The notes: generated by a model not told the origin, from the letters alone. Numbered from the stretch's first letter, positions 13,236 to 28,073 are shown. The stretch is DNA of 64,000 bases from Verrucomicrobiia bacterium (GCA_036501625.1 DASXZY010000042.1:1929-65928), one strand, 5' to 3'. A program made the numbers and translations.

Positions 13236-15416
13236 CTAGTCGCTCGCTGCCTCGGCGGTTTGCCGCGAACGCGCTTCCATCGCGCGGAAACGGGTTTCCA
13301 GTTTGGGGTAATGTTTGATCAGCGCCTGAAAATGCGTGTCCCGCAGCGAAAGCAGGAGCGTCGGCGCCAAGGTGCGCACGGTGGCCGTCCGGGGCATCCG
13401 ATGCAGGAGCGCGATCTCGCCGAAGTAATCCCCGTCGTCCAGGACGGCGATTCTCTTGGGTTCCTCCGCGCCGTTTTGCTTGAGAATCTCGACTTTGCCG
13501 CGGGCGATCAAATAGAACTTATCCCCCATTTCGCCTTCGGTCACGACATCCTGCGCGGCCGGGTAGGATTCGGCCACAAAGTATTGCACGGCCTCTGCCA
13601 GCGCCTCCGGCTCCAGTTCGCTCATCACGGGGTAATCCTGCAAATGCGCCGGATCGATCACGCCATCGTCCCCCTGCTCGTTGATCGTGAACCCGCTTTG
13701 CCGCCGCCAAAGCCTGGCATAAGCGCCGCGGGCCGCCATCAAATTCGCGTGGCTGCCCGCTTCAGCCACCCGTCCGCCTTGCATGAAATAAATGCAATCC
13801 GCGTTCTGCACCGAGGCCAGCCGGTGGGTCACGGAGATCACCGTCCGCCCGGCCGACAAATCGCGCAACGTCGCGTTGATGGCCGCTTCCGTTTCCGGGT
13901 CCAGGGCGGAAGTCGCTTCGTCAAGTAGAAGGATGCGCGGATGCCGCAGCAGGGCGCGCGCGATGGCAATCCGCTGGCGCTGGCCTCCGGAAAGGCGGCC
14001 CCCGCACTCGCCGGCCAGGGTGTCGTATCCTTTGGGCAGCGAGGCGATCCATTCGTGAATTTCCGCCTGGCGGGCCGCGCCTTCCACCTCGTCATCGCTG
14101 GCGGAAGGGAAGCCCAGCCGGATATTCTCCCGCAGGCTCAAGTGGAAAAGGTCGCTGTCCTGGAAGACGACTCCCATCTGCCGCCGCAACGATTCCACCA
14201 TCGTTTGCCGGATGTCCACGCCGTCAAACATAATTGAGCCGGCATTGGGATCGTAGAAACGAACAATCAAATTGAACAGCGTGCTTTTGCCGCTGCCGCT
14301 GCTGCCGACAAAGGCCACAAAGGTGCCGCATCGGATCGTCAAGTCGATTCCGTGCAGGTTTTGCAAGCCGCCGCCGTAACTGAAGGAGACATTGTGAAAG
14401 CGGATGTTCTCGCGCATCGGCGGATGATCGGCCGCGCCCGGCTGATCGCTCACGGCGGCCTCCTCCTTCAGAAGTTCCTGCACCCGGCCCAGGCCGAGGA
14501 CGGATTCCATCAGCACCGGCGTCACCTGGGTCAGAGTCTGGATGGAACGGACGACGTAAAGAAAAATGCCCTGGAACGCTACGATTGTGCCCAGCGTGCG
14601 GTGCCCGCGCGCCACCATCAGCAACCCCAATCCCATCACCAGCACTTCGGCGATCAGAATGATAAGGTTGGGCGAGCGTTCCAGCACGTAGGCGATGAAC
14701 TTGGCTTTGGCCGTCTCCCGCGTCAGCGACTCTGTCAAATCAACAAATCCGTTGATGAAATGCGGCCCCAGCCCGAAGGCCTTGACCACCGGCTGGGCCA
14801 GTACCGTTTGCTGGGCGATGTGTTCCAGTTCCGATTCCTTGTCCTCCACGGGCACGCGGGCGTCCGCCGCCACCTTGACCAGCGGCCGCGGCAATTCAAC
14901 GCACAGCACCAGCGCGCAAACCGTCAGCGCCGCCAGCCGCCATTCCAGAAAAAACAAAATGGTCACGCTGCACACAATTCCGACCGCCCCCAGCAGAAAA
15001 CCGGCCGCCCCGGATGTCACCGCCGATTCCAGCAGCACGAGGTCGCCGGAGAGCCGGGCGATGAGGTCGCGGCTGCGCTGCTGCATGAAGAAGGACATGG
15101 ACATCTGCTGCAAATGGCGGAAGACCGCCTGCCGGGCATCGCGCTTGATGCGCGTGCTCAAGACCGCGAAGCCGTAACCCCGCAGCAAATCCGCGCCGGA
15201 CGCCAGCAGGACGGCCAGGATGAGCGCCCCGGCGATCTTGCTGAAAAAAATGAGGTCCACCCCGGCGGAAATTTTGTCAATAAAATACTTAAGCCCCAGC
15301 GGCCACATGATGCTGAAGGCGACATCGACCATCAGCAGCGCTCCCACCCCGGTGGCGATGCTTCGGTAGGGGGACAGATACCGCGCCAGCACGCGAAGAT
15401 ATTGAAAAAAGGTCAT
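13236..15416 (-). CDS. ABC exporter (permease/ATPase) fused to a C-terminal cyclic-nucleotide-binding domain
   Basis: 726 aa with an N-terminal TM domain. GSSGSGKST, LSGGQRQRIAIARALL, ILLLDEATSALD. The C-terminal ~120 aa carry the cNMP-binding signature (GEMGDKFYLIARGKVEIL..LDDGDYFGEIALLHRMPRTATV). Confidence 0.9.
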   Translation of the reverse strand: MTFFQYLRVLARYLSPYRSIATGVGALLMVDVAFSIMWPLGLKYFIDKISAGVDLIFFSKIAGALILAVLLASGADLLRGYGFAVLSTRIKRDARQAVFRHLQQMSMSFFMQQRSRDLIARLSGDLVLLESAVTSGAAGFLLGAVGIVCSVTILFFLEWRLAALTVCALVLCVELPRPLVKVAADARVPVEDKESELEHIAQQTVLAQPVVKAFGLGPHFINGFVDLTESLTRETAKAKFIAYVLERSPNLIILIAEVLVMGLGLLMVARGHRTLGTIVAFQGIFLYVVRSIQTLTQVTPVLMESVLGLGRVQELLKEEAAVSDQPGAADHPPMRENIRFHNVSFSYGGGLQNLHGIDLTIRCGTFVAFVGSSGSGKSTLFNLIVRFYDPNAGSIMFDGVDIRQTMVESLRRQMGVVFQDSDLFHLSLRENIRLGFPSASDDEVEGAARQAEIHEWIASLPKGYDTLAGECGGRLSGGQRQRIAIARALLRHPRILLLDEATSALDPETEAAINATLRDLSAGRTVISVTHRLASVQNADCIYFMQGGRVAEAGSHANLMAARGAYARLWRRQSGFTINEQGDDGVIDPAHLQDYPVMSELEPEALAEAVQYFVAESYPAAQDVVTEGEMGDKFYLIARGKVEILKQNGAEEPKRIAVLDDGDYFGEIALLHRMPRTATVRTLAPTLLLSLRDTHFQALIKHYPKLETRFRAMEARSRQTAEAASD

Positions 15417-15725
15417 GAAGTATCGATCACGTCATGGTTTTTCCCGTTCGCGCCCGCCGTCCTTGCGCATCATGGCTTCTTCCTGGCACATGCGGGACAA
15501 TTCTTAGCGTTTTTTAAGCCAAACCGCACGGAAAAAACGGCCCCATCTCCGAAGAAGGCGGCTGAGTGCGAGTGATGCATGGTCTGAATTCGCTCTATCC
15601 GCGCCAGCAGAAAACAAAAACTCACATCCTAAACGCCATCTTTGCTTTTCAGTTTTCGAGTGCAGCGGTTTTGCGGAACAAGCGACTGGGGTGGATAGAG
15701 AGCGCAGCCGGAGCAACGCCGCCTC

Positions 15726-16028
15726 TTAAATTCGTGGCATTAGCGCCCAAATGACCCATAACAAAATCAATACCAAACCGAACGCCGCATAAGCTCTGCG
15801 CCGTTTCCACGAAAACAATACTGTAATGAACAGCGAAACGAACACCGGAACAGACGCGTCGAACATGCTCTGGTACCAAAACGTTAGTCCATGAACCGTC
15901 AGTGTCTTAGGGTTACCCCACATGACCAAAATTAGAACAAGGCAAAAAGACTCGACTGTCCATCTCCACAACTTGAAAAATTCAAGTTTCCGATTGCGAG
16001 GGTTGGGAAATGGTTCACCGTGCGGCAT
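15726..16028 (-). CDS. Hypothetical small membrane protein
   Basis: 100-aa ORF with 2-3 hydrophobic helices, in a lower-GC stretch just outside the island's distal att repeat. No recognisable motif. Confidence 0.35.
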   Translation of the reverse strand: MPHGEPFPNPRNRKLEFFKLWRWTVESFCLVLILVMWGNPKTLTVHGLTFWYQSMFDASVPVFVSLFITVLFSWKRRRAYAAFGLVLILLWVIWALMPRI

Positions 16029-16217
16029 ACTTTTTAATTCAGGTCGCCGGGCTTTCGCCTAAATCTTGCCCGGTTTTCATGCGCATGTTCATCAAAGGAG
16101 GACGAATGGTAGTCTTGAGGGTTTGGCGTTGCAAGCCGGCTGGAATTTGGGTAGTGGGTACTTTGAATTTGAGATTTCGCGCTGCCCTGTCCGCTGTGGG
16201 AAATCAGGAACTTATCG

Positions 16218-16259
16218 GCTTCCCTCGTAAAATTGGTGCGCGAGAGAGGACTTGAACCT
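16218..16259. repeat. Distal att repeat (copy of tRNA-Leu 3' end)
   Basis: gcttccctcGtaaaaTtggtgcgcgagagaggacttgaacct matches 25528-25569 with 2 mismatches (16227, 16233). The perfect core 16234-16259 is identical to the last 26 nt of the tRNA, including CCA. Confidence 0.85.
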
Positions 16260-16398
16260 ATTTCAGACTCGTTTTTCATGTTCTCGTTGTTGCTCATATT
16301 TGCCTTTCTTTGATCTATCTTGCTGCGGATGATACGTCGTTATCCCTTTATTTACAAGCACTTTCTTGCATCTTTGCGCAATAATGTGAAGAAAAACG

Positions 16399-16482
16399 CG
16401 TGTCGCGGTGTGTCGCCCGTTTGGCTTGTGTCGGCGATGTGTCGCGATCAAAGCAGGCGGTTTTCTGTGTCGGATTGTGTCG
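16399..16482 (+). promoter_or_regulatory. Array of six (T/C)GTGTCG direct repeats (candidate integrase arm-type sites or iterons)
   Basis: CGTGTCG at 16399. TGTGTCG at 16409, 16427, 16438, 16466 and 16476, all in the same orientation, with pairs spaced 10-11 bp. The same motif recurs at 25492 and 25503 beside the other att end. Confidence 0.5.
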
Positions 16483-16874
16483 GGAGGGGACGGGCGGGGC
16501 GTCCGCTGTCTTGAGCCATCCGGCGTACAATCGCTCGCCGTGGCCTTGCTGGCGCGCGCGGGCGGCGGGAATTGGCGGGCGGCGGACTGCGCTACAGGGC
16601 GAGCGGCCATCGCGTTTAACGCCGGTTACGGTGGACGGCTTGCTCCGAATCGTAACGCGATGCCTGCGCGGCTGGCGCGGCCAGCATCGGATCGCCGGGC
16701 AAGGAATCTCTTTTTTGTGGCCAGACCCCGTCCGGGCAGCCTTCGGCATACCCCCCCCTTCCACGCGTTATCCGGTCACCGGGAGTCCCGCGCGTACACC
16801 CTCACTCGTTTTTGGAAATGCTTCTTGACATAGAGAAGCGGAAATGATTCAAATGCGAACAAATGACTGATTGG

Positions 16875-17183
16875 TCAATTGTTACGGGTCTCATCCCGCA
16901 AACGGAAAGCAAGGTCGGCGGTGATGTAGTCGGTAAGGGACTGTCTGCAAACCTGCTTGTTGTGGGCGTCACACCAAGTTTTAACTGTGACTGCCTTAAT
17001 TGGAATGCGTCTCGTGACCATTCCTTTGTTTTGCAAATCCTTCTCGAATGCTTCGATCTTCGCTCTGAAAGCGCGATAAGTCAGGGGGTCTTGTCTCTCA
17101 GATGCAGGAAGCATGGCAACAACGGCGAGATAGTCTGATTCGTTTTCGTACCACGGGACAGCCATCGGCAAACTTGGTTCCAT
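16875..17183 (-). CDS. Hypothetical cytoplasmic protein (island cargo)
   Basis: 102-aa ORF with no signal peptide, a plausible composition and no recognisable motif. Confidence 0.45.
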   Translation of the reverse strand: MEPSLPMAVPWYENESDYLAVVAMLPASERQDPLTYRAFRAKIEAFEKDLQNKGMVTRRIPIKAVTVKTWCDAHNKQVCRQSLTDYITADLAFRLRDETRNN

Positions 17184-17474
17184 ATTCTTACCTTATTTTA
17201 CAGAACCCTTGTTTGACACCTAGCGGGCAATCTGGCAGGCTGGCAACGCTTGCAGCCACCGCTTGTCCGGTGCTTCCTTGCCGGGGTTCAAGTTCACGGC
17301 AAAGGAAATCTTTTGGCTGTCACGGCTCCAACCGTGGCAGCCTCTTGCTTTCTGGCTCAGGATGCGGCAATTGAACTTGCGGACGCAAGGCGCAAGTCTG
17401 GCGCTGATCTGCCTTTGTTTTGGCTGGCAGGACGGTTAGCGCCGGGCATGATTAGGCCGCAGTCAATCAGGGCG

Positions 17475-18074
17475 ATGATGAAACGAATTCTGATTTGTTT
17501 TGCGATGGTGTTTGCGGACGTTTGCCTTGCGGGGCCGGTCGCGCTCTACGTCTGGAACACGACACAGCACGCCTTCGATTCAGTGTCCCTCGGTTCTTTC
17601 GATGGCTTCCCATACTTAATCTTTGGCGGGCCGGTCGCGGGCGTCACAAACGGTTGCGGCTATCTCTATGACACTACGGAATTGGCATGGCTGCCCATAT
17701 CCCTCCAAGGCGACACCAACGCGGAATATATGGCTTTTGGCGTTGGCGGTGACGGCTCGGACGCATCGTATTTCTTGGACGGCACCAATGCCGGGGCGGT
17801 CACATTGCAAGACTTTGGAGGATACCCGGACGCCTACTTGGGGCCGGATGTTCCGGCAGTTGTCCTGTCCAAGGCGCGGTTGGCGGGCGGCTTTTTCCAG
17901 TTCCAGTTCAACACGGCATCAAACGTCAATTATCAAGTAAATTTCTCTACGAATCTGCGGATATTCGCGCCGCTGGCCGTGGTTGCGGGGACGGCCGGGC
18001 CGATCACGTTTACCGACACAAACAACGCGCGGGCGGTTGGATATTACAGAGTCAGCCTGGCGCTGGTTCCGTGA
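17475..18074 (+). CDS. Secreted hypothetical protein with Verrucomicrobia-type C-terminal tail (island cargo)
   Basis: The ATG at 17475 gives MMKRILICFAMVFADVCLAGP (signal peptide). The C-terminus (GGFFQFQFNTASNVNYQVNFSTNL..GYYRV) shares its pattern with the C-terminus of the GloVer protein at 18854-20278. Confidence 0.6.
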   Translation: MMKRILICFAMVFADVCLAGPVALYVWNTTQHAFDSVSLGSFDGFPYLIFGGPVAGVTNGCGYLYDTTELAWLPISLQGDTNAEYMAFGVGGDGSDASYFLDGTNAGAVTLQDFGGYPDAYLGPDVPAVVLSKARLAGGFFQFQFNTASNVNYQVNFSTNLRIFAPLAVVAGTAGPITFTDTNNARAVGYYRVSLALVP

Positions 18075-18135
18075 CTAGGATTGATGTAAACGCCTGATAC
18101 CCAAGCCGCTGAGGGCTTGCGGGAATGCCCCGGCT

Positions 18136-18495
18136 GTGATTAAGTGCAGCATGAGCGACAACCCAACAGCATGTCCACCGACAACCAAGGGCACGCGGCA
18201 CTTAAACCAAGGAAATGTCCCCGGCAGGCTCAGTCCATATTCACAAGCCGTTGAGTGGCAACGCCGTTTGAATGAAGCTGGAACGGCAGAGGGGATAACG
18301 CCGCAGGCTCTTGCGGCTCTCGCACGCGCCTGGAAGGAACTGGAAGAAATCAAGCGCAAGATCAAAGGCAAGGCCGACCCTAAGCCAGTGGATACGTCCG
18401 CCATCGCCGCCCAGAATCGCCGCCGCCATCGCCAAGGCCAGAACCTCAGTGACCCGGTTGAACCGATAGTGCTGGCGAAGGCTAACGGTCGCTGA
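18136..18495 (+). CDS. Hypothetical basic protein (island cargo)
   Basis: 119-aa ORF (an alternative ATG at 18151 gives MSDNP..). Charged/helical central part (ALAALARAWKELEEIKRKIKGK); no motif recognised. Confidence 0.4.
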   Translation: MIKCSMSDNPTACPPTTKGTRHLNQGNVPGRLSPYSQAVEWQRRLNEAGTAEGITPQALAALARAWKELEEIKRKIKGKADPKPVDTSAIAAQNRRRHRQGQNLSDPVEPIVLAKANGR

Positions 18496-18853
18496 GAGGG
18501 AGTATTTATCCAGCCGTGTGCGGTTGCTGGCGCGAACCGATTCAATGATTTAATCGCGCCTCGATCATCGGAGAAACCCGCCGAATTATAGAGCATTGCC
18601 CCAAGGAGTGTTTTCGGTTACGAATGGGCTGTAACGAGCAACTATGTAAACCGAAGCGAAAACATTTAGCGTAGCTATGGCTACGGTCTCGCTAAGAACC
18701 GCGAATTTTCCGAGTGCGAAGATCAGCCTAAGCGCGCGCCTAAACGGGTGCGGCTTGGCTCATTCTCTACACGGGCGTTGCGCGGTGGCTCTACTGAGGA
18801 TGCGCCAAGTTCGCGCCTTTTTGGTCACAGCCGACAATCCGACGAAATAAATT

Positions 18854-20278
18854 ATGAAAAACGCCATGCCAATATCGTGCTTTGCGGTAGTGGTTTCGAT
18901 GAGCACTTGGTCGCCGGTTCAAGCGCAGTTCAACACCTTCAACTTGCTGCATTCTTTTTATGAGACAAACAGCGAAGGAACCAGTCCGCAAGCCGGTTTG
19001 ATTCTGTCTGGTGATACCCTGTATGGGACGACGTGGCAGGGCGGGAGTGCGGGCTTTGGCACGATATTCAGAATAAGCCTCGATGGCTCAGGTTTTACGA
19101 ATCTTCACACTTTCACAGATGGCGCGGATGGGGCCAATCCGCAGGGAAGCCTGATTTTGGCGGGCAACATCCTTTACGGGACTGCACAAGGAGGGGGCAG
19201 TTGGGGCAATGGCACCGTGTTCTCGATCAATACAGATGGCACGGTTTTTACGAATCTTTATAGCTTCACAGGAGGGGGCGACGGAGCCAGTCCGCAAGGC
19301 ACTCTGACTTTGTCTGCGAGCAATCTGTACGGGACGGCATTTACCGGCGGCATAGCGGGGAACGGCGTCTTGTTCGCGCTTAACACCAACGGCACAGGCT
19401 TCACGAATCTTCACATTTTCAGCGCAACATTATCGGGCACGAACAGCGACGGAGCCAACCCGGATGGTGGCCTGTTCTTATCAGCCGAAACGTTGTATGG
19501 GGCGGCATATGCAGGCGGCAGTGCTAATCAAGGCACCGTGTTCAGAGTGAACACCGACGGCTCGGACTTCACAAACCTTCATAATTTCACTGCAACTTCT
19601 GTTTTTAGTCCTGTTACAAATAGCGATGGAGCCAATCCAGTGGCTGGTGTGATTCTGTCAAACAACACGCTGTATGGGACGGCGCAAATCGGGGGCAGCG
19701 CGGGCTGGGGAACCGTGTTTAGTGTTAATACGGACGGCTCGGATTTTACGAACCTGCATAGTTTCGGCGGCAAATTAGGTTTCAACTCGAGAGTCACCAA
19801 TACGGACGGAGCTTATCCGAATGGCGGTTTGATTTTGTCAGACGACACGCTTTATGGGGCGGCGCTTAATGGCGGCAGCACTGCTAAGGGCACTTTGTTC
19901 ACAATTCACACTGACGGCTCGGATTTTACGAACCTGCACAATTTCACCGGCAGCAGCGACGGAGCGAATCCGTACGGTTCCTTAATTTTATCTGGCAACG
20001 CATTATATGGGACGGCGTCTGAAGGTGGCACCGGGAACCAAGGCACCGTGTTCGCGTTGGCATCGCCAGAGGCTTTTATTCCGCCGATCTTAGGCATTTC
20101 TTCGGCAGGCAATCAATTCGTTCTCTATTGGCCCGCTTCGGCTACGAATTTCATTTTGCAGACAACCTCTAATTTGTCCTCGCCGAACTGGGCAACGGTT
20201 TCCAATGGGGTGCCGATAATCGGCGTCACACTCACTAATGTTTCGCCGGGCGCCTTCTTCCGTCTCCAACAGCAGTAA
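18854..20278 (+). CDS. Secreted Gloeo_Verruco (GloVer) tandem-repeat protein (island cargo)
   Basis: 474 aa with a signal peptide (ISCFAVVVSMSTWSPVQA). About 8 tandem ~45-50-aa repeats of the form F(T)NLHSF.....DGANP.GGLILSGNTLYGT...GG..G.GTVF.(I/V)NTDGS. C-terminal tail QFVLYWPASATNFILQTTSNL..WATV..GAFFRL. Confidence 0.85.
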   Translation: MKNAMPISCFAVVVSMSTWSPVQAQFNTFNLLHSFYETNSEGTSPQAGLILSGDTLYGTTWQGGSAGFGTIFRISLDGSGFTNLHTFTDGADGANPQGSLILAGNILYGTAQGGGSWGNGTVFSINTDGTVFTNLYSFTGGGDGASPQGTLTLSASNLYGTAFTGGIAGNGVLFALNTNGTGFTNLHIFSATLSGTNSDGANPDGGLFLSAETLYGAAYAGGSANQGTVFRVNTDGSDFTNLHNFTATSVFSPVTNSDGANPVAGVILSNNTLYGTAQIGGSAGWGTVFSVNTDGSDFTNLHSFGGKLGFNSRVTNTDGAYPNGGLILSDDTLYGAALNGGSTAKGTLFTIHTDGSDFTNLHNFTGSSDGANPYGSLILSGNALYGTASEGGTGNQGTVFALASPEAFIPPILGISSAGNQFVLYWPASATNFILQTTSNLSSPNWATVSNGVPIIGVTLTNVSPGAFFRLQQQ

Positions 20279-20335
20279 CGAGAGCGGGGGGTGTTCCTTG
20301 ACCCCACCCCATAACACCATGCCGTCCCCGTCATT

Positions 20336-20692
20336 TCAATCAGCGGCGGGTTTTTGCGGATTTTTGGGCAACCGTGCCAAAGCTCGCTGACACAATGGAT
20401 TGGAGATTCCGCGCAACCCAATGATCAGGCTTTCGACGGTGGACTTGTCCGCTCCGAGAAATTCCCCGGCCAGGACTTGGTTTGCGACATGCATCCACAG
20501 TGCGCAATCCGGCGGCAGATTGGCGGCTTTGGCCTCCAGCAAATCCAAAAGTTCGCGCTTGTGCTGGCGCAAGTCAGCTCTGATTTCAGGCGGACAATTG
20601 ACGGGCAAAAGCACTCTCAGCTTGTCGCCAGCGGGTTCAATCCGCCCACCCGCTTGTTTGACGGCCAGCAGGATTTCAGATGGAGTTCTCAT
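20336..20692 (-). CDS. Small protein translationally coupled to the primase (function unknown)
   Basis: 118 aa with a 4-nt overlap with the primase stop (20689-20692). The N-terminal L..L...GG.I...GDKLRV..P...PPEIRADLRQHKRELLDLL pattern resembles docking/helper domains seen next to mobile-element primases. Confidence 0.6.
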   Translation of the reverse strand: MRTPSEILLAVKQAGGRIEPAGDKLRVLLPVNCPPEIRADLRQHKRELLDLLEAKAANLPPDCALWMHVANQVLAGEFLGADKSTVESLIIGLRGISNPLCQRALARLPKNPQKPAAD

Positions 20693-23040
20693 ATCAATTC
20701 CTCGACCAACTCTTTCGTTCTCTCCTTACCCGGGGATTTTGAGTCGTGACAACGTGACAAATCAGCGTTTGCAAGGGTTTCGTCAGGATTTGAACCCGTG
20801 ACATGGTTCGGGGGTGTCACGCTTTCAGAAGTGGGCTTTCCCCCTGTAAAATCAAGGGTTGTCACGGTGTCACGCTTGGCAAGCCCCGAATTGGGCAGGT
20901 AACGCTCAAACGCCTCGTTGAAATCAGCGGTTTCGTAACCTTTAGCCCGGTCGTCAACGATGCGAAGTGTTCGCGGGTTAATGCCGAACGAATGGAGACG
21001 GCGGGCCAACCAAGACTCGGTGATCGGCTTGCCCCGGTTGGCTTCTGGCCACGGTCGGTCGGACATGACACACAGTGCCTCAACGAGCGACTTGGAAAAA
21101 ATGCGGGAGCCGGTTGATTCGGCCAGGACGTGGCGGATGTCTTCCAACAACGTCGTGCCGACACCTTGGGCGTCCATGTCATCACATGAAGTCAGCGCGG
21201 TAAATGCGGCGGCGGCCCGGAGCGGCCAGGCACCACCCGCAATTTCTGCGATGGCAAAGAGCGGTCGCCAGTTGTCGGCCAGCCGATTATGCGCTCCATC
21301 GGGCAAAGCCGGGTCGCACGCCTCAATCTTTTTGAAATTGTCGGCGGCCCAGCGCGCCAGCTTCCGGCAGAGTTCTTTTTCGGCGGCAACACGACGGGAG
21401 GAAAACCGCGCCGCTACTTCACCGGTTTTGGCGCGAGTCAAAACAATGCCGATGCTACGGTCGTGCAAGGTGCCCGGAAGCGTGCCGATGCCACAAAGCA
21501 CGACGGGGGCGAACACGTTGAAAGCGCGGACTTCGTGTTCGTCGCCTTCGCAACGCAAGGCTTGTCCCCCGCGTCGGTGGCCCGCGTTTAAAAGGCCGCG
21601 CAGTTCGTCGCTATCGGGCAACCAAGCGTCGTACTCGTCCGCTAGAACTACAAGCTTATGCTTCTCAATGAGACGAAACAAGACGGCAGGCGTTTGATTC
21701 TCCGTCTGAACGGAGCGCGGAACAAACAACGCGACAACATCACTCAATGTGGTTTTGCCACATCCTTTTTCGGGCGAGCGGATGTTGAGTCGCGGTGTCA
21801 CATCGAACGCCTGAAAAGAATGAGTATGAGCCACCCACAATGCGATTGCATCGGCAGCGCCAGGAGGCAGCGCCACATACCGCGTGACGGCGGCGGCAAC
21901 GGCGGTCAGTATTTCCGCGCCGTCAACGGGTTCTGGCCAGGGTTCAACTTCGGGTATCTCTACGGCGCAACCTTGCAAATGGCCGCCGGTTTCACCGCGC
22001 TGCTTTTCAACCTCGGCGTCCAGGGTCGAAACGCGCACACCAAGTGCATTTGCTTCTGTCTGGCGGCAACGGTCATATTCCGCCGGGGGCAAGTCGGCCA
22101 GGCGCGCGTAGGTATCCGTATCGTTTTCTGTGGGCAGGACGGCAGTGTCAATTTGTTGTTTGACTGTGGGTAGTTCTTCAAGTGCGGCCAAATCGTTGAA
22201 ATCAGTCGGCTTGGTCGTGGCGTCTTTGAATTGCGGCACGGCCAGCCGGGCGCGGATTGCCTTTGCGGCGGCGGTTGCATCCGTCACGCCCGGATTTTTC
22301 CTTGGCGCTTCGGTCCACTGGTCATTGTCGGCGGCGATGATGATTTCGCGTTGCGGCCACAATTCACGCGCCGCCTTCGCTACCGCAATCAGGTTGTGGC
22401 AATTCATGGCGCAGATTACGGCATGGCCGGTTGCCTCATGGAGGCTCACGCCGGTTGCGTAGCCTTCGCAGATGACAAGAGGGCCATCCGCCTTGTCAGC
22501 AAGGGTGAAGAAACATTCCTGTATGCGGCCACCGCCAAGGAAATTCTTTTGACCTTCCGCACCAATGAATTGGAATGAATGAAGTTCGCCGTTGATGTCG
22601 CGGAGTGGCAGCGCAATCGTGCCTCGATGCCCCCGCGCCTCGCCGCAGACCTGAACGCGCTTGGCGGCAAGGTAGGGATGCGAGGCAGACAGCGGTTCGG
22701 CGCGTTTGAGAATCCGGGCGGCTATTTTGCGCGCCTTTTCCCGGCGTTCCTTTTCCCCCCTCTCACGCTCGCGTTTAGCCTCCTGCAAAGACTGGCGGGC
22801 GCGTTGCCATTCCGCTTGCGACAAATGTCCGTTGCGGTCGTGCCAATCTTCATTGATGCCGCGCTTCCAGCACCCAAACGCCCCGGCCATCGGCGGCCCG
22901 GCATACAGCACGTACCAACTGTTTTTCGACTTGTCATCTCCGGCGCGGAAGCGGTGGAGTTTGCCGTCCGCCTCAATTGGCCCGGCGCAGTCTAGGCCAG
23001 CGCGGTGCAGTGCGGCGCGAAAGGAATCAAGGGCGTTCAT
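20689..23040 (-). CDS. Mobile-element DNA primase (Toprim) fused to DUF3631-type P-loop domain
   Basis: The ATG at 23040 (MNALDSFRAAL..) is preferred over the track start at 23094. N-terminal DGKLHRF..KNSWYVLY motif. Toprim region LVICEGYATGVSLHEATG..IIIAADND..DFNDL. C-terminal NIRSPEKGCGKTTLSDVV P-loop as in DUF3631/VirE-like domains. Confidence 0.8.
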   Translation of the reverse strand: MNALDSFRAALHRAGLDCAGPIEADGKLHRFRAGDDKSKNSWYVLYAGPPMAGAFGCWKRGINEDWHDRNGHLSQAEWQRARQSLQEAKRERERGEKERREKARKIAARILKRAEPLSASHPYLAAKRVQVCGEARGHRGTIALPLRDINGELHSFQFIGAEGQKNFLGGGRIQECFFTLADKADGPLVICEGYATGVSLHEATGHAVICAMNCHNLIAVAKAARELWPQREIIIAADNDQWTEAPRKNPGVTDATAAAKAIRARLAVPQFKDATTKPTDFNDLAALEELPTVKQQIDTAVLPTENDTDTYARLADLPPAEYDRCRQTEANALGVRVSTLDAEVEKQRGETGGHLQGCAVEIPEVEPWPEPVDGAEILTAVAAAVTRYVALPPGAADAIALWVAHTHSFQAFDVTPRLNIRSPEKGCGKTTLSDVVALFVPRSVQTENQTPAVLFRLIEKHKLVVLADEYDAWLPDSDELRGLLNAGHRRGGQALRCEGDEHEVRAFNVFAPVVLCGIGTLPGTLHDRSIGIVLTRAKTGEVAARFSSRRVAAEKELCRKLARWAADNFKKIEACDPALPDGAHNRLADNWRPLFAIAEIAGGAWPLRAAAAFTALTSCDDMDAQGVGTTLLEDIRHVLAESTGSRIFSKSLVEALCVMSDRPWPEANRGKPITESWLARRLHSFGINPRTLRIVDDRAKGYETADFNEAFERYLPNSGLAKRDTVTTLDFTGGKPTSESVTPPNHVTGSNPDETLANADLSRCHDSKSPGKERTKELVEELI

Positions 23041-23258
23041 TATTCGATGCCTCCGCGTTGCATCTTCAATAACGCCTGCTCCACAGTCGGCCAATGGAAC
23101 AGCACGCGCCTGCCGGTGACATTCACGTAAGGAATTTTGCCGGACGTTCGCCAGGTCGCCAAAGTTCTCCGGCTGATTGGCAGGCGTTGCAACAGCGTCG
23201 CGGTGTCGATGAAACCCGGCTCATGGCCGGCCAAATTGATCAATTGATCCTTTGCCAT
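23040..23258 (-). CDS. Excisionase/AlpA-type helix-turn-helix DNA-binding protein
   Basis: 72 aa. ATLLQRLPISRRTLATWRTSGKIPYVNVTGRRVLFHWPTVEQAL is the HTH_17/excisionase pattern. Its stop overlaps the primase start (TAATG). Confidence 0.75.
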   Translation of the reverse strand: MAKDQLINLAGHEPGFIDTATLLQRLPISRRTLATWRTSGKIPYVNVTGRRVLFHWPTVEQALLKMQRGGIE

Positions 23259-23394
23259 GCAAACAGATTACACGGCGAGAAATGCCGGTTTGAATTGTGC
23301 CCCGGCAGCATGGGGGGGGTATCTACGCTATCAAAAAGCAGCATCGCGGGCGCTCTACACGATAGTTCGGCAGCAAAAGCGCGTCCGAATCCTG

Positions 23395-24162
23395 TCAAGA
23401 GGCGGGAATTGCTCTTTTTGCACGCTTCTTTGCTTCGTATTCCTTCGCGGCGCGTGCGCGTCCGGCAGCCTTCTTTTTGGCGGTTTTTTCAGGCAACCAC
23501 CATCTAGGATATTCCTCGGAGCAGATATGCCAAGTCAGGTCGTCAATCCCATCGGTAGAATAGAGCGTAAAGCGGGCATCCAGCAATCTTTCACGCTGCT
23601 TTGCGTCTAAGAGGGACGACTCCTGTTGCACGATAGATTTTTTCAGCAATTCGGCGGTCTCTTTTGGTGATAAGCTTCCGGGGACGGATGCCTGGACGAG
23701 AATCACTCCGCGCTTGGCAGCATCGGTTATTTGTTCTTCAAGACGGGCCAATCGCATTCGGATGTCGTTAAGATTAAAGATTTTTGCGCTTTCGGCTGCA
23801 TCAATTTGCCAGGATAGGAATTTTCGGAAACGGGGTTGATTGTCCGCCTTTTTCTTCCCCTTGACGATCAAACGATAGAAGTCATCCAGTGTTGCCGGAA
23901 ACTTTTCTGGCATTGGTGGTTTTTCAAATTCCTTTGAAGCAATCTCTGCTTTACTCTGTGGTCGCGCGCTTTTCTCCAATGAAGATTGGCAATCATGGAG
24001 CAGATGCAGAGCGGCATCTATCGCTTCTTTGTTTGGCAGGGTGGTGAATCGGGATTGTGCAACAAGATGCGCGAGTGCGACGGCGTCTATTGTCGGGGGC
24101 GTCGGAGCGGCGTTTTGCTCTGCGCCTCGCTGCTTATCGAGTTTCGAGTCTGGAATGTTCAT
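23395..24162 (-). CDS. Hypothetical protein (island, between int and xis)
   Basis: The ATG at 24162 (MNIPDSKL..) lies 6 nt downstream of the integrase stop; the track start at 24237 would overlap int. 255 aa, Lys-rich C-terminus, no motif recognised. Confidence 0.55.
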   Translation of the reverse strand: MNIPDSKLDKQRGAEQNAAPTPPTIDAVALAHLVAQSRFTTLPNKEAIDAALHLLHDCQSSLEKSARPQSKAEIASKEFEKPPMPEKFPATLDDFYRLIVKGKKKADNQPRFRKFLSWQIDAAESAKIFNLNDIRMRLARLEEQITDAAKRGVILVQASVPGSLSPKETAELLKKSIVQQESSLLDAKQRERLLDARFTLYSTDGIDDLTWHICSEEYPRWWLPEKTAKKKAAGRARAAKEYEAKKRAKRAIPAS

Positions 24163-24167
24163 GCGTT

Positions 24168-25463
24168 TCAACCGTTCGCGCTCGCGTGCAGCGGGATGAC
24201 ATTGGCACTGGATTTCGACGGCCTGACGGAAAACCATTTTTCCGCCTCAGCTTTCGTGGCCAGTCCCTTGTAATGCGCGTGAATCATGGCCGGGGAATTG
24301 CCCGCCTGGGCGGCGGTCAAGTTTTCGTTGCTGTGCAAGGCGAAATGAAACGAGCAATAGCCGTGGCGCATACCGTTGCGGCGTGACGGGATTTTGAGGG
24401 ACTCACGCAACCGGACAAATGCCCGCATATAGCCGTTAATCCCGGTAGGTTGGTTCCATAAGCGGCCTTCCATCGCCCGAAACGGTTCCAGCCATGCGGC
24501 CAGCGCCGGGCAGATTTCCACCAGACGGCGGCGGCGTGTCTTGGCGTTTTGCGCGGTGATTTCGACATGGCCGGGGATGCCAAAAACATTTTCCCATGTC
24601 AGGCGCAAGGTTTCCTCAAGGCGAAGCCCGGCCAGCCCTTGCAGGGCCATGATGGCACGCAGCGGGCCTTCCGCCGATTCGAGCAAGCCGCGCAATTCAG
24701 CGGGCCGGTAAAAGTCGGTTGCGGCGGCGTCAAGCGGTTCTTTCTGCATGGCGTCGGATTCGATTAAGCGGTGGGTGGGTGAGAGATAATCCTGCCGGAC
24801 ACACCAGCGCAAGAACATGGCTACGGCGGCGCGGCGGTCGTTGCGCGACTTTGGCCCAAGAGCGGTGTGGGTGGCCATGTAGCGGGCCAGAAAATCGCGA
24901 TTCAAGTCGCCAAGGCGATGCCCCGGAAACGTCGCGGCAAATTCCTGTAGCCAGCATTCGACGTGCGAGGCATAGCAAGGCGAGAGTTGAGAGCGTTTGC
25001 CGTCCACCGCTTGCGCCTTGGGTTTCCTGACGGCAAGGAATTCCTTCACGGCGTCGGCCATCAGCTTGGGCTTGACCGTGGCGAGCGTGTGGGCAAAAGC
25101 CTTCACGGACTCGGTTAGGCCGTATCCTTGCGGCAATTGCTTGATGGCGTCCAGAAAGCCCGTGACGGCTTCCAAGGCCGTGAAAGTGCGCCCGGTGTCG
25201 CGGCGGCAGGCGTCTAGGGCGTCGCGAATGGAAAGGGCGGCGGCGGCTTCCTTGCCGGTCAAGGCGGTGACTTGCGAGCCTTGCGCCAATTCCTTCACAA
25301 GGGCATCGGCCCGGCGCTTCACTTCGCTGTAAGATTGGAAACGCTCCATCCGGCGCTTGCCCGCCACGCGCCAAGCCAGCCGGTAAGCCGGATAGCTGGC
25401 GGACTTGCCGTAAATCGTGGCAAGGACTTGTCCCCGATGTCGGATGCGTTTTGGGAATCGCAT
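24168..25463 (-). CDS. int: Tyrosine-type site-specific integrase
   Basis: The track ORF extends to 25613 across the tRNA; the ATG at 25463 (MRFPKRIRHRGQV..) is the plausible start. The C-terminal catalytic region includes ..GLRLEE.., ..HGMRHGYCSF.. and ..MIHAHYKGL (R, HxxR, Y). Confidence 0.85.
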   Translation of the reverse strand: MRFPKRIRHRGQVLATIYGKSASYPAYRLAWRVAGKRRMERFQSYSEVKRRADALVKELAQGSQVTALTGKEAAAALSIRDALDACRRDTGRTFTALEAVTGFLDAIKQLPQGYGLTESVKAFAHTLATVKPKLMADAVKEFLAVRKPKAQAVDGKRSQLSPCYASHVECWLQEFAATFPGHRLGDLNRDFLARYMATHTALGPKSRNDRRAAVAMFLRWCVRQDYLSPTHRLIESDAMQKEPLDAAATDFYRPAELRGLLESAEGPLRAIMALQGLAGLRLEETLRLTWENVFGIPGHVEITAQNAKTRRRRLVEICPALAAWLEPFRAMEGRLWNQPTGINGYMRAFVRLRESLKIPSRRNGMRHGYCSFHFALHSNENLTAAQAGNSPAMIHAHYKGLATKAEAEKWFSVRPSKSSANVIPLHASANG

Positions 25464-25491
25464 GTTCTCTGTTTCGGAATCGGGCGTTTTC

Positions 25492-25509
25492 TGTGTCGTT
25501 TCTGTGTCT
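25492..25509 (+). promoter_or_regulatory. Two TGTGTC(G/T) repeats between the int start and the att repeat (candidate arm-type sites)
   Basis: TGTGTCG at 25492-25498 and TGTGTCT at 25503-25509, 11 bp apart. The 12-mer TTTTCTGTGTCG (25487-25498) is identical to 16461-16472. Confidence 0.5.
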
Positions 25510-25527
25510 AAAACATCCGAATTCTCC

Positions 25528-25569
25528 GCTTCCCTCTTAAAAATGGTGCGCGAGAGAGGACTTGAACCT
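25528..25569. repeat. tRNA-proximal att repeat
   Basis: Partner of 16218-16259; overlaps the 3' 26 nt of tRNA-Leu. Confidence 0.85.
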
Positions 25570-25627
25570 CCACCCCTTTCGGGACCAGATCCTAAGTCTG
25601 GCGTGTCTGCCATTCCACCACTCGCGC
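25544..25627 (-). tRNA. tRNA-Leu (anticodon UAG), CCA encoded
   Basis: Folded by hand. Acceptor stem GCGCGAG/CUCGCGC and U8. D-stem GUG/CAC. Anticodon stem CCAGA/UCUGG with loop CUUAGGA. Long variable arm CCC-GAAA-GGG. T-arm GGAGG-UUCAAGU-CCUCU, discriminator A, CCA. 84 nt. Confidence 0.9.
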
Positions 25628-25821
25628 GCCGACTCAGCGGGAGCCTCCGCCGTGTCGTGCAAGTTTCGCAAAGGGGTTGGCGGGGCGCAAGCAGCCAGTT
25701 CTAACGGGCGGCGCAAAAAAACAACATTTGCCAAATTCAATGTCATGGTTTACCATCAAATAGTGGTTGTGCGCTTTGGCGCGGTGATCTTTGACATTTT
25801 TTGAGAGGTTGCCTGGAGCGG

Positions 25822-26240
25822 GTTGAGGCGGAATATCGGCCGGTTCGGGGCAAAACGCGGGAAAACAAGGCGGCACAAGGCAGCGCTCGCCGGCAACTGT
25901 TGCCGGCAAAGCCCCGAAGTTTTCGGATGGCGGGACCATTGGCGGCATGGAAATTCGGACAAAACGGCGCAAAACGTGGGAAAACAAGATGGCACAAGGC
26001 AGCAATCGCTGGGAACTGGTGCCGGCAAAGCCCCCGAAGTTTTCGGATGGCGAGATTATTGGCGGCATGGAAATTCGGACAAAACGGCGCAAAACGCGGG
26101 AAAACAAGGCGGCACAAGGCAGCAATCGCTGGGAACTGGTGCCGGCAAAGCCCCGAAGTTTTCGGATGGCGAGATTATTGGCGGCATGGAAATTCGGGCA
26201 AAACGGAGCAAACATGGGAAAACACGGTCGAACAAGGCAG
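25822..26240. repeat. Tandem repeat array, ~120-bp unit x ~3.5 copies, non-coding
   Basis: The anchor GGCGGCATGGAAATTCGG recurs at 25941, 26061 and 26180 (periods 120 and 119). Copies 2 and 3 differ by about 3 substitutions and 1 indel. The first copy is degenerate at its 5' side and the last is truncated. Each unit has AAAAC x3 phased at 10 bp and a CCGAA-gtt-TTCGG hairpin. Confidence 0.9.
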
Positions 26241-26402
26241 TTTTCGAAAAATAAGGCGGAAACGGCAAAAGATATGATTTAGATTATTTAGATACTATTT
26301 GCTTGCAAATAAATTTGATAGATAGTAAATGATAGTCAATAGACAGGAAGCTGATAGGCGCGAGAGCGCGGCCGCTGGCTTCCCGCAACGAAAGGAAGTC
26401 TT

Positions 26403-28073
26403 ATGACATCTGATGCCGATTCCGGTTCTGGCCCGGTTCCTCCGGCGCCCATTCCTCCCCCGATTGAATGCTCGCGGCCGGCTGGCTTGCCCGCGGACCC
26501 TTGGGAGCCTTTCCGAAGATGGGCGCGCGTTCTGGCCGCCCGCAATCCGTTTTATATCGTCAGCGCCATGCTGCTGCTGTGGAGCATGCGGCGGCTTTCG
26601 CTTGACTCCAGGATATTCCGCGATGAGCTGCCGCAATTGCTCTTCAACTTCTCCTCCTTCCAGATTTATGAACTGCTGCTGGCGGGGACGGCCATTGGGC
26701 TGGCCCGGCGGCGCGCGTGGTATGATTCCGGGCTGCTGGTGGGATTGGAAAATATGTTTGTCTGCGTGCCCTTCCTCCTCGTCAGCCAGGCCCTCCTGCT
26801 CGAAAACTGGATTGCCGCCGCCTTCTGCCTGGCGGGCGGCGGGCTGGCGGTCGCGCGCATCGCGGCGCTCAAACGCCGCTTAAAGGAGCTTGCGATGCCC
26901 GGCCCGCTGCTCTGGATGGGCGCCGTCCTCCTCTGCTTCAACCTGGCATGGCCGCTGCTGATTCGCCGCCTCCACCAAAATGTCTCCATGCCCGGCTGGG
27001 ATGATCGGGGACTGATGCTGACCTCGCTGGAGTGGAACTGGCTGCTCCCGGCGGCGGCCGCGCTGGGATTATTCTTGACAACGCGGCCCGGCGCGGCTGC
27101 CATGCCGGCGGGCGAGGAACGGCCGTTCTACAATTGGCGCTCCTTTCCCCTGCTGGCGCTGCTGATGTGGGCGGCGGGAACCGGCGTTCATCTTTACTGT
27201 ATCAGTTACGTGTATGGATTGCCCTGGAACATCGCCTTCCTGGCGCCGGGCGCGTGGGTGGCTTCGTGGGTTCTCTGGCGTCAGGCGGGGCGGCTTGTGC
27301 CGGAAGTTGTTCGCGCGACTGTTCAACGCGGCCTGTTGTTTCCGCCAGCGCTCGTTTTGCTGTGCTGCCTGGGCGCCACGCAGCCGTCAGTGTGTTTGAC
27401 ACTGGCCGTTTTGAACGCAGTTGCCTTTGGGGCCGCGGCGGTGGTTCGCCGCGAACGGCTGGCGGTTCACTTGGGAGCGTTTTCCGTGCTGGCGGCGCTG
27501 GGAGCCATCCGGCCCGCGGAGACGGCCCAGATTTTTGGCGGCGGGAGCTTGTTCTACATCGTGGCATGCGCGCTTGTTTCCGCGCGGCCCAGATTGGGCA
27601 TCGCGGGCGGATTTGCTCTTGGAATCGGGCTGGCGTGCGCGTTAGGCGGAACGGCCATGATGCTGAACTTCGCGTTGCAGGCGGCTTTGGTGTTCATCCT
27701 TCTGCACAGCCTGCGCTGGGGCGGCGGCCGGCATTCCGACGCGGCCAAGGCCCGCGCGATTTGCGCCGCCTGCTGGCTCATTCACACCGCGGCCTGGGTG
27801 ATTGCCATGCCGGCCGGCGCGATCGCGGTGACGATGGCCTGCGGTTCGTCGATTCTTATTGTTTACACCTGCGCGCGGTTCGTTTTGGGAACATGGGGGC
27901 CGCGCATCATCGCCTGGAGCGGCGCGGCGGTGATGTGGTGGGGGCCGCTTTATCTGGCCGGGCGGCATTTGCTGCGCGCGCCCGAAGGCGTGCTGGAACT
28001 GCTGGCCAGTTTCGCGCTCTTCGGCCTCGGCACGCGGGCCGCCCTGTGCAAGGCGCGCCGCCGGGCGGCTTGA
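26403..28073 (+). CDS. Polytopic integral membrane protein, function unknown
   Basis: 556 aa with a Pro-rich N-terminus followed by about 12-14 hydrophobic helices. Overlapping alternative-frame ORFs (27032-28162 +, 27907-28770 -) are Arg/Gly/Pro-rich shadows. Confidence 0.7.
   Translation: MTSDADSGSGPVPPAPIPPPIECSRPAGLPADPWEPFRRWARVLAARNPFYIVSAMLLLWSMRRLSLDSRIFRDELPQLLFNFSSFQIYELLLAGTAIGLARRRAWYDSGLLVGLENMFVCVPFLLVSQALLLENWIAAAFCLAGGGLAVARIAALKRRLKELAMPGPLLWMGAVLLCFNLAWPLLIRRLHQNVSMPGWDDRGLMLTSLEWNWLLPAAAALGLFLTTRPGAAAMPAGEERPFYNWRSFPLLALLMWAAGTGVHLYCISYVYGLPWNIAFLAPGAWVASWVLWRQAGRLVPEVVRATVQRGLLFPPALVLLCCLGATQPSVCLTLAVLNAVAFGAAAVVRRERLAVHLGAFSVLAALGAIRPAETAQIFGGGSLFYIVACALVSARPRLGIAGGFALGIGLACALGGTAMMLNFALQAALVFILLHSLRWGGGRHSDAAKARAICAACWLIHTAAWVIAMPAGAIAVTMACGSSILIVYTCARFVLGTWGPRIIAWSGAAVMWWGPLYLAGRHLLRAPEGVLELLASFALFGLGTRAALCKARRRAA

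Follow-up and report, generated by a model that had tools for sequence, protein, structure and literature searches.

In the Myxococcus phage Mx8, the attachment site attP lies inside the 3' end of intP. The 'suicidal' integrases of archaeal SSV-type elements also carry attP inside the integrase open reading frame (ORF), where integration splits and inactivates the gene, and they are exclusive to archaea according to a review (PMC8371274). For the bacterial elements ICEKp1, ICEclc and ICEEc1, experiments have demonstrated, for transcription, that a promoter at the far end drives the integrase gene int only after the two ends have been joined (PMC13023037). Among small integrating elements, the P4-like ones are essentially enterobacterial (PMC10085698), and the pMEA300-type integrative elements of actinomycetes use the replication initiator RepAM, which corresponds to the DUF3631 domain (PMC3218068). 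Here we analyse 64,000 nucleotides (nt) of a contig from an uncultured Verrucomicrobiae bacterium (Verrucomicrobiia bacterium, GCA_036501625.1, DASXZY010000042.1:1929-65928; hereafter the window) and argue that positions 16234-25543 probably represent an integrated mobile element of about 9.3 kb in a tRNA-Leu(UAG) gene, and a member of a large undescribed family; this judgement covers our best explanation as a whole, that is insertion, family and a proposed circle-dependent mechanism together. To our knowledge, the mobile elements of Verrucomicrobiota are almost undescribed.

The sole tRNA gene that ARAGORN detected in the window is an intact tRNA-Leu (anticodon tag; 25544-25627, minus strand), the integration target, and an Rfam scan of 14000-28000 gave no match other than this gene. 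Using a repeat finder, we identified a direct repeat of 48 nt and 92% identity, a two-copy family at 16212-16259 and 25522-25569 with a spacing of 9310 bp. It encloses the 42-bp repeat (16218-16259 versus 25528-25569) from which a first-pass annotation, made by a model from the sequence alone, had called an integrative element, and which does contain exactly 2 mismatches. Both copies are read on the minus strand. The distal one, attR, and the proximal one, attL, share a perfect 26-nt core, TGGTGCGCGAGAGAGGACTTGAACCT; coordinates and sequence confirm that the attL core (25544-25569) lies within the tRNA gene and equals its 3' end including CCA, and that the attR core (16234-16259) is a copy of these last 26 nt. 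A 26-mer repeat would be expected by chance about 5e-7 times in 64 kb. GC content is 0.564 in the island, compared with 0.603 in the rest of the window, and falls to 0.549 in the distal cargo part, as had been remarked at first reading.

Related genomes carry the same locus without the element. We searched for orthologues of the ATP-binding cassette (ABC) transporter with a cNMP-binding domain that is encoded on the left flank (13236-15416) and inspected the contigs of the closest ones. In two metagenome contigs, L028 and L030, which encode ABC orthologues of 78% and 76% amino acid (aa) identity, a tRNA-Leu(tag) that is 98.8% and 97.6% identical, respectively, to that of the window ends 147 and 138 bp upstream of the ABC gene, to which its 3' end points, and no island is present. 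The corresponding tRNA-to-ABC interval in the window is 10,128 bp, of which 9,310 bp are delimited by the repeat; its final ~115 bp, up to the ABC start, can be aligned with the L028 and L030 spacer. The uninterrupted locus that the first-pass annotation had proposed to look for thus exists in two relatives, and we conclude that the segment is a site-specific insertion relative to related genomes. At two more orthologous ABC loci, this position is taken by a tRNA-Ser or lacks a tRNA, and an Opitutaceae locus with a 61%-identical ABC protein, found in a genome-collection scan, has no tRNA nearby and was uninformative. A 58-nt piece of the window's tRNA was also found in six metagenome contigs, none of which shares the window's flanks; in four of these unrelated DNA follows the tRNA, and the other two (L019 and L021) have a related integrase gene directly after it. 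The predicted attP junction reads CCTCTTAAAAA, the 26-nt core and ATTTCAGACTCG, and the predicted empty attB is the tRNA followed by ATTTTACGAGGGAAGCC.

Directly inside attL lies a stretch that is open in the integrase frame (25464-25543, minus strand), followed by the gene of a tyrosine integrase that was recognized by Pfam, PHROG and alignment and is 431 aa long when counted from an internal start, MRFPKR (24168-25463, minus strand). At the opposite end we found a conserved, outward-facing block (16329-16398, minus strand), in which the palindrome TTGCGCAA is accompanied by a sigma-70-like promoter (16357 to 16329; TTGTAA-17-TATCAT). Located between the distal arm repeats described below and attR, this block is conserved in the window and in three sister elements, L002, L004 and L023, the L023 version being TTGACA-17-TAATCT. 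It is followed by GAAAGGCAAAT and, as comparison of the elements revealed, by a conserved ATG (MSNNEN...; 16295-16297, minus strand) that faces out of the element and is preceded at 7-8 nt by a conserved GAAAGG. In the integrated state this ATG opens an 87-aa ORF (16034-16297) that runs across attR into host DNA and was called as a gene in the JGI annotation. When we joined the ends in silico around one repeat copy, the far-end ATG and the integrase shared one frame in each of the four elements with both ends at hand (window, L002, L004 and L023). Read from the sequence, the integrase ORF spans attP, and joining of the ends makes one frame that starts at the far-end ATG behind the putative promoter, crosses the att core and continues into the integrase. 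Of this frame, the far end contributes the start codon and 13-17 codons. Since the frame crosses attP, the circular form would encode a longer integrase: the far-end ATG would be the start of a predicted 479-aa protein with a 48-aa N-terminal extension on the 431-aa form, and the predicted junction peptide contains NESEIGSSPLSR.

It is also conceivable that only transcription is switched, with the 48 attP-spanning codons and their far-end ATG forming an untranslated leader and Int always having 431 aa. Switching without a change of protein is documented for ICEKp1 and ICEclc (PMC13023037), the extension is of low complexity and poorly conserved past its first 6 residues, and part of it is constrained as DNA (arm repeats and att core) rather than as protein. 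However, the junction is open in the int frame for 48, 48, 53 and 53 codons despite four different tRNA cores, length differences among the junction frames are multiples of 3 only, and each of the other two frames contains 2-5 stops; shuffled junction sequence stays open with a probability of 0.06-0.12 per element. In addition, the MSNNEN codons are kept in three elements through synonymous changes and the GAAAGG motif precedes the far-end ATG, whereas the internal start lacks a conserved ribosome-binding site and is GTG in L023. We therefore consider a leader without coding function doubtful and retain the reading in which the extension would be translated.

The arrangement resembles that of ICEKp1, ICEclc and ICEEc1 in that the element lies directly downstream of the tRNA gene with int next to it, and the putative far-end promoter faces int after circularisation. 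It differs from them in that the start codon and the following codons are also found at the far end, so that the frame itself crosses attP. With the SSV-type elements it shares, by sequence comparison, a location of attP inside the int ORF and a 5' part that integration would separate. In contrast to these, the cut falls in the 48-aa extension and leaves the 431-aa ORF intact, with all domains and the internal ATG, and there is no sequence relationship to the archaeal type (Pfam PF16795). We tentatively propose, with slightly less belief than doubt, that Verrucomicrobia harbour small integrative replicons with attP inside the integrase coding sequence, in which the 479-aa Int, its ribosome-binding site and its promoter would be assembled only on the circle. 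This would constitute a built-in directionality switch and would parallel, in bacteria and without destruction of the gene, the archaeal 'suicidal' integrases; under the same proposal, the family could also be an undescribed phage-satellite lineage.

The integrase matches phrog_1 (E 8e-18), and its catalytic R281, K308 and R366 as well as the tyrosine in GNSPAMIHAHY align with P2 Int (PDB 5DOR) and across six family members. The catalytic R, K, R and Y, whose loss had been considered as a sign against an integrative element, are thus predicted to be retained. Comparison with the sister integrases further revealed that residues 1-40 of the window protein are 82.5% identical to L002 and 51% to L004 and L021, whereas residues 121-431 are 54% identical to L002 and 68-75% to L004 and L021. 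From these alignments we read the window integrase as a composite protein, whose arm-binding module is of the L002 kind and whose core-binding and catalytic module is of the L021 kind. L021 has the same tRNA target as the window, and its integrase gene, which directly follows the tRNA, is 77% identical at the DNA level.

Short repeats flank both ends of the element. Six arm-type repeats cluster at 16400-16482, reading (T)GTGTCG on the plus strand and CGACACA when viewed along int, with pairs 10-11 bp apart: five exact copies of TGTGTCG fall within 75 bp at 16409-16482 and a sixth GTGTCG lies at 16400, compared with 5.5 copies expected in the whole window. Two further repeats, TTTCTGTGTC x2 on the plus strand, are present in the attL arm at 25488-25508. 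In tRNA orientation, four elements share a layout in which a pair of repeats, spaced by 11 bp, follows the tRNA at a distance of ~32-47 nt, and five to six paired repeats precede the distal core by 150-220 nt; all of them point the same way. The window and L002 have the motif CGACACA, L004 and L021 have CCGCACAG, and L023 has TTGCACA; the motif sequence tracks integrase residues 1-40, with residues 121-431 showing the reverse similarity pattern. Because L021 retains the repeats with an IstB-like ATPase instead of the window-type primase, and because the motif follows residues 1-40, we read the repeats as arm-type integrase sites, an assignment made by sequence comparison. For the same two reasons, we disfavour the idea that they are replication iterons.

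Several observations weigh against our explanation. The empty sites come from other species, and the flank upstream of the tRNA in them is not syntenic with the window. Searches for exact matches to the flanking proteins returned only the source contig and an identical Logan contig, and these two assemblies of the organism are both occupied. No excised form or attP junction was found, the search for the junction being an exact-match scan of IMG/VR that gave no match. About 680 bp between attR and the conserved tRNA-ABC spacer (15560-16233) are absent from the empty sites of L028 and L030 and unexplained. The integrase scores below the Pfam threshold (16.9 versus 27.1 bits), and both of its catalytic His positions are Asn. 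The internal ATG has no evident ribosome-binding site, and translation of the N-terminal extension is predicted from the reading frame. An origin of replication was not identified in the element.

Some of these points would fit an element that is fixed and no longer mobile, or a repeat that arose by chance or segmental duplication, namely the integrated state in both assemblies, the atypical integrase with its two His->Asn substitutions and the extra DNA adjoining attR. Yet the 26-bp core is perfect and the duplication, when examined for a larger segmental origin, proved limited to 48 nt, every core gene is intact and translationally coupled, the putative far-end promoter and its ATG are intact, and the site is empty in relatives. 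Moreover, both Asn substitutions occur in all family integrases that we aligned and hence are a family trait rather than a sign of decay. We consider a dead remnant or a spurious repeat very improbable and continue with the reading as an intact mobile element.

Three of the genes between the integrase and the cargo form a putative replicase operon. Order, sizes and minus-strand placement of the five core-side genes agree with the first-pass annotation, and the element in tRNA-Leu(UAG) with an integrase, a helix-turn-helix (HTH) protein and a Toprim-DUF3631 primase as its core is borne out. The HTH gene (23040-23258, minus strand) encodes a 72-aa HTH_17 or excisionase-like protein, as indicated by sub-threshold Pfam, NCBIfam and PHROG matches. 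Its stop overlaps the next gene in TAATG, and the latter overlaps the third gene by the 4 nt ATGA; both overlaps, noted before, can be read directly in the sequence. Domain searches of the 783-aa replicase encoded by the middle gene (20689-23040, minus strand) identified a Toprim primase (EGYATG), a P-loop (GCGKTT) and a DUF3631/RepAM domain (Toprim_3 + DUF3631; E 7e-41 for DUF3631). Matches to the N-terminal half include phage primases as well as primases encoded on more than 3600 conjugative plasmids, and residues 373-716 have their best plasmid matches in DUF3631 proteins of 13-14 kb Streptomyces plasmids; no solved structure is related in sequence to the primase. The third gene encodes a 118-aa protein (20336-20692, minus strand), which is conserved alongside the primase at 54-70% identity. 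In its AlphaFold2 (AF2) model (predicted local distance difference test, pLDDT, 89), an N-terminal beta-hairpin docking domain precedes a helical domain and superposes on the nonribosomal peptide synthetase (NRPS) docking domain 6ewt with a template modelling (TM) score of 0.79 and a root mean square deviation of 1.5 A. On the basis of this model, we infer that the 118-aa protein may bind a short tail of the replicase as its partner. In several sister elements, a second HTH_17 gene (76-93 aa) adjoins the attR arm repeats (L002:8778-9056; L023:16117-16398); no second HTH_17 gene is present near attR in the window, and the single HTH_17 protein of the window is no less similar to these far-end paralogues (54-65%) than to the primase-proximal one (53%).

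The primase has 1147 homologues at E<=1e-10, nearly all of them on metagenome contigs, and the few named ones are Verrucomicrobia or Chthoniobacterales. Each sister element is bounded by its own repeat of a tRNA 3' end. The distance between repeats, 9310 bp in the window (tRNA-Leu(tag)), is 9368 bp in L002 (tRNA-Leu(taa)), 9610 bp in L023 (tRNA-Leu(gag)), 9267 bp in L027 (tRNA-Gly(ccc)), which has a different integrase at the other end, and ~12.7 kb in L004 (tRNA-Asn(gtt)), which contains a MobA/MobL relaxase gene inside the repeats. No att ends were found for L025 and L026. In an all-against-all comparison, only the integrase, the HTH_17 protein, the primase and the 118-aa gene were common to the elements.

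The first-pass annotation had filed the element as P4-like or as a phage satellite. Like P4 (NC_001609), it is a small element (9-12 kb) integrated in a tRNA-Leu gene, with a lambda-type integrase and arm repeats around attP, a small HTH protein gene upstream of the replicase gene and a slot for variable cargo adjoining int. Its Toprim core and that of P4 alpha are homologous (38% identical over 111 aa, E 2e-18, with a shared EGYATx motif; 783 versus 777 aa), and the P-loop regions are weakly similar (25% identical over 172 aa, E 0.004). However, the replicase C-terminal half is of the DUF3631/RepAM type, the integrase and the sub-threshold HTH_17 protein are putative functional analogues of P4 Int and Vis but lack pairwise similarity to them, the island has no counterpart of psu, delta, sid, epsilon or cI, and the host belongs to Verrucomicrobiota. 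For psu, delta, sid and epsilon, tblastn with the P4 proteins yielded no hit below E 0.1 in the island, and Pfam, PHROG and NCBIfam likewise gave no match. When judged by the SatelliteFinder definitions, the element fails as P4-like (7 components) and as a phage-inducible chromosomal island (PICI; 5 components), and the combination of int, AlpA-like protein and primase alone corresponds to the three-component 'Type C' level that the authors of this tool consider unreliable (PMC10085698). The filing is not supported: alpha is the only P4 component with a detectable counterpart, and no homologue of psu, delta, sid, epsilon, the small terminase gene terS or a capsid-morphogenesis gene was found.

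A phage satellite, whether P4-like, PICI-like or similar to the minimalist phage-inducible islands (PICMI), would be induced by a helper phage, excise, replicate with its primase and be packaged in helper capsids. According to PMC10085698, a core of int, AlpA-like HTH and primase-helicase is common to P4, PICI and PICMI; with the latter two the element shares an integrase, an AlpA-like regulator and a primase-replicase module as well as its small size and the lack of structural genes. The P4 alpha homology and near-equal replicase length would fit a satellite, as would the size range of 9267-9610 bp in four of the five delimited family members and the model of the 255-aa protein described below, which consists of long helices like scaffold-type proteins. 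A distant DUF3631 element, L033 (L033:1-8690; IMG/VR UViG_3300032770_000814), would fit as well. This 8.7-kb contig starts at a tRNA-Leu(taa) and encodes a PF00589 integrase, a 963-aa DUF3631 protein, a large terminase (Terminase_6N/6C), an Adhesin_E protein and a resolvase, but neither a portal nor a capsid protein, and may represent a prophage fragment or else a relative of this replicon type that is satellite-like. Unlike in PICI and PICMI, however, no terS, capsid-morphogenesis or other packaging function was detected in the island: no island ORF matched a small terminase or capsid-morphogenesis gene in Pfam, PHROGs or NCBIfam, and no terL or structural-gene homologue was found. Neither viral nor solved structures matched the model of the 255-aa protein, one sister element encodes a relaxase instead, there is no known helper phage, and close relatives are essentially absent from IMG/VR, where scans with the integrase returned none. 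We regard a satellite lifestyle as decidedly unlikely, and the satellite or P4 label as an unproven resemblance.

The DUF3631 domain invites comparison with the actinomycete integrative and conjugative elements (AICE) of the pMEA300 type, which integrate in tRNA genes and replicate after excision via a DUF3631 initiator that is sometimes associated with a primase (PMC3218068). The island differs from them in the absence of an FtsK/SpoIIIE-type Tra protein (no island ORF contains an FtsK_SpoIIIE domain in Pfam), in the fusion of a Toprim primase, rather than a Prim-Pol, to the initiator, and in the phylum of its host. An integrative mobilisable element would excise, replicate like a plasmid and be transferred by the machinery of a co-resident conjugative element via an unrecognised origin of transfer (oriT). 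This would be in line with the MobA/MobL relaxase inside the repeats of L004, whose primase is 63% identical and whose integrase belongs to the same clade, with the primase matches on conjugative plasmids, and with RepAM being the initiator of actinomycete integrative conjugative elements; according to PMC7826253, SGI1-type mobilisable islands also replicate after excision. On the other hand, the window element lacks a coupling protein, searches with Pfam, NCBIfam and PHROG detected no relaxase, terminase or capsid-related gene in it, and no oriT was found, a site that is not recognisable from sequence alone. A relaxase is present in only one of ~7 sister elements inspected, and the window contains no conjugative element. 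As a full account, mobilisation is possible and, in our view, somewhat unlikely. In the absence of transfer genes of its own, the element must nevertheless hitch-hike, and we slightly favour conjugative mobilisation over other transfer routes because one sister element carries the relaxase.

Based on these data, we propose the following life cycle for the apparently intact mobile element. It would enter the 3' end of tRNA-Leu(UAG) by site-specific recombination through its tyrosine recombinase and bring its own copy of the last 26 nt, with Int binding the arm repeats via its N-terminal domain and recombining within the 26-bp core. The HTH protein would serve as excisionase, as regulator of the replicase operon that it precedes, or as both. 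Once excised, the circle would use the primase/RepAM-type protein and its partner to replicate like a plasmid. Only in circular form would the element express the 479-aa Int from the far-end promoter, which would favour re-integration. In the integrated state, in which int adjoins the tRNA and no terminator was found between the two genes, the 431-aa Int would be made only by read-through from the tRNA gene, via the internal ATG. Such a switch would bias an integrated element to stay in and an excised one to integrate.

The remaining genes belong to a variable slot next to int and to the distal cargo. The slot (23395-24162, minus strand; GC content 0.50) encodes a 255-aa all-alpha protein, as predicted by a structure model, and holds different occupants in different elements. 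This protein has ~115 uncharacterised relatives; its all-helical model (pLDDT 90) found no fold match in PDB or BFVD, and 46 homologues gave no Pfam match. In sister elements, the position next to int sometimes contains toxin-antitoxin or nuclease genes, which is not the case in the window: an Mrr_cat/NA-iREase1 nuclease and Gp49(HigB-like)/HTH pairs are encoded between the integrase and a variable ~290-aa gene (L001:7300-8094; L002:1516-2162; L004:8126-8750).

Gene calling in the distal cargo yielded a 102-aa protein with a weak match to phrog_4753 (16875-17183, minus strand), a protein of 274 aa as called (17250-18074, plus strand) and a 114-aa protein (18151-18495, plus strand). The fourth product, a 474-aa secreted-type protein (18854-20278, plus strand), contains 7 GloVer repeats (TIGR03803, E 4e-82) that were detected with NCBIfam and a repeat finder, and is built of 153-180-nt DNA repeats. 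The start of the 274-aa protein probably lies at MMKRILICF..., which resembles a signal peptide, and no homologue of this protein was found in sister elements. Both larger cargo proteins end in a similar beta-rich C-terminal segment (...FFRLQQQ in the 474-aa and ...YYRVSLALVP in the 274-aa protein). The L025 element also encodes a repeat protein, of 524 aa with 51-nt repeats, and secreted repeat proteins may be a recurrent cargo. None of the window's cargo genes has a counterpart in any sister element in the all-against-all comparison. The suggestion that the cargo slots could be a hotspot for defence systems found no support in the window, where a PADLOC scan of the cargo gave no significant defence-system match.

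Further features lie in the surroundings of the element and at the orthologous locus in relatives. The stretch between the ABC gene and the attR core (15417-16233) has a GC content of 0.50 and a 100-aa membrane-like ORF (15726-16028). The first ~16 nt after the attR core, the ATTTTACGAGGGAAGCC segment, match the integrase-proximal element ends in L019 and L021, and for this reason the ~680-bp stretch next to attR may, judging from this match, have been left behind by an earlier element. A MAFFT alignment had suggested a decayed third copy of the tRNA at 15563-15640, which we rejected since its local alignment was no better than that of shuffles. On the other side, a non-coding tandem repeat of 119 bp x 3.3 copies with 90% matches (25846-26240) is situated just upstream of the tRNA-Leu gene. 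In L028, whose 3' site is empty, a different island of ~6.3 kb lies on the 5' side of tRNA-Leu(tag) (L028:3410-9853), bounded by a 39-nt copy of the tRNA 5' end and encoding a PF00589 integrase, HTH_3, RadC, KfrA-like and PemK proteins, with Mrr_cat and N6_N4_Mtase genes just outside it; tRNA-Leu(tag) is therefore targeted from both sides by unrelated elements. Outside the island, a 607-aa ABC-type ATPase (AAA_15/AAA_21) is encoded at 11355-13178 (minus strand) between two ABC-transporter genes. It matches the candidate defence ATPases HEC-01A (E 2e-33), AriA (PARIS) and GajA/Old, and is absent from this position in L028, L030 and L031.

Collectively, the locus provides a clearly bounded and apparently intact representative of a family that numbers more than 1000 relatives and has a defined core and att layout, several tRNA targets and changing cargo. 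DUF3631 'primases' in such genomes are best annotated as replication proteins of integrative elements. With an arm motif that follows the first 40 integrase residues and a core target that follows the rest, the family constitutes a natural experiment on the modular swapping of integrase specificity. Finally, the frame spanning attP suggests that the element could distinguish the circle from the integrated state by the protein that is made, and not only by transcription.

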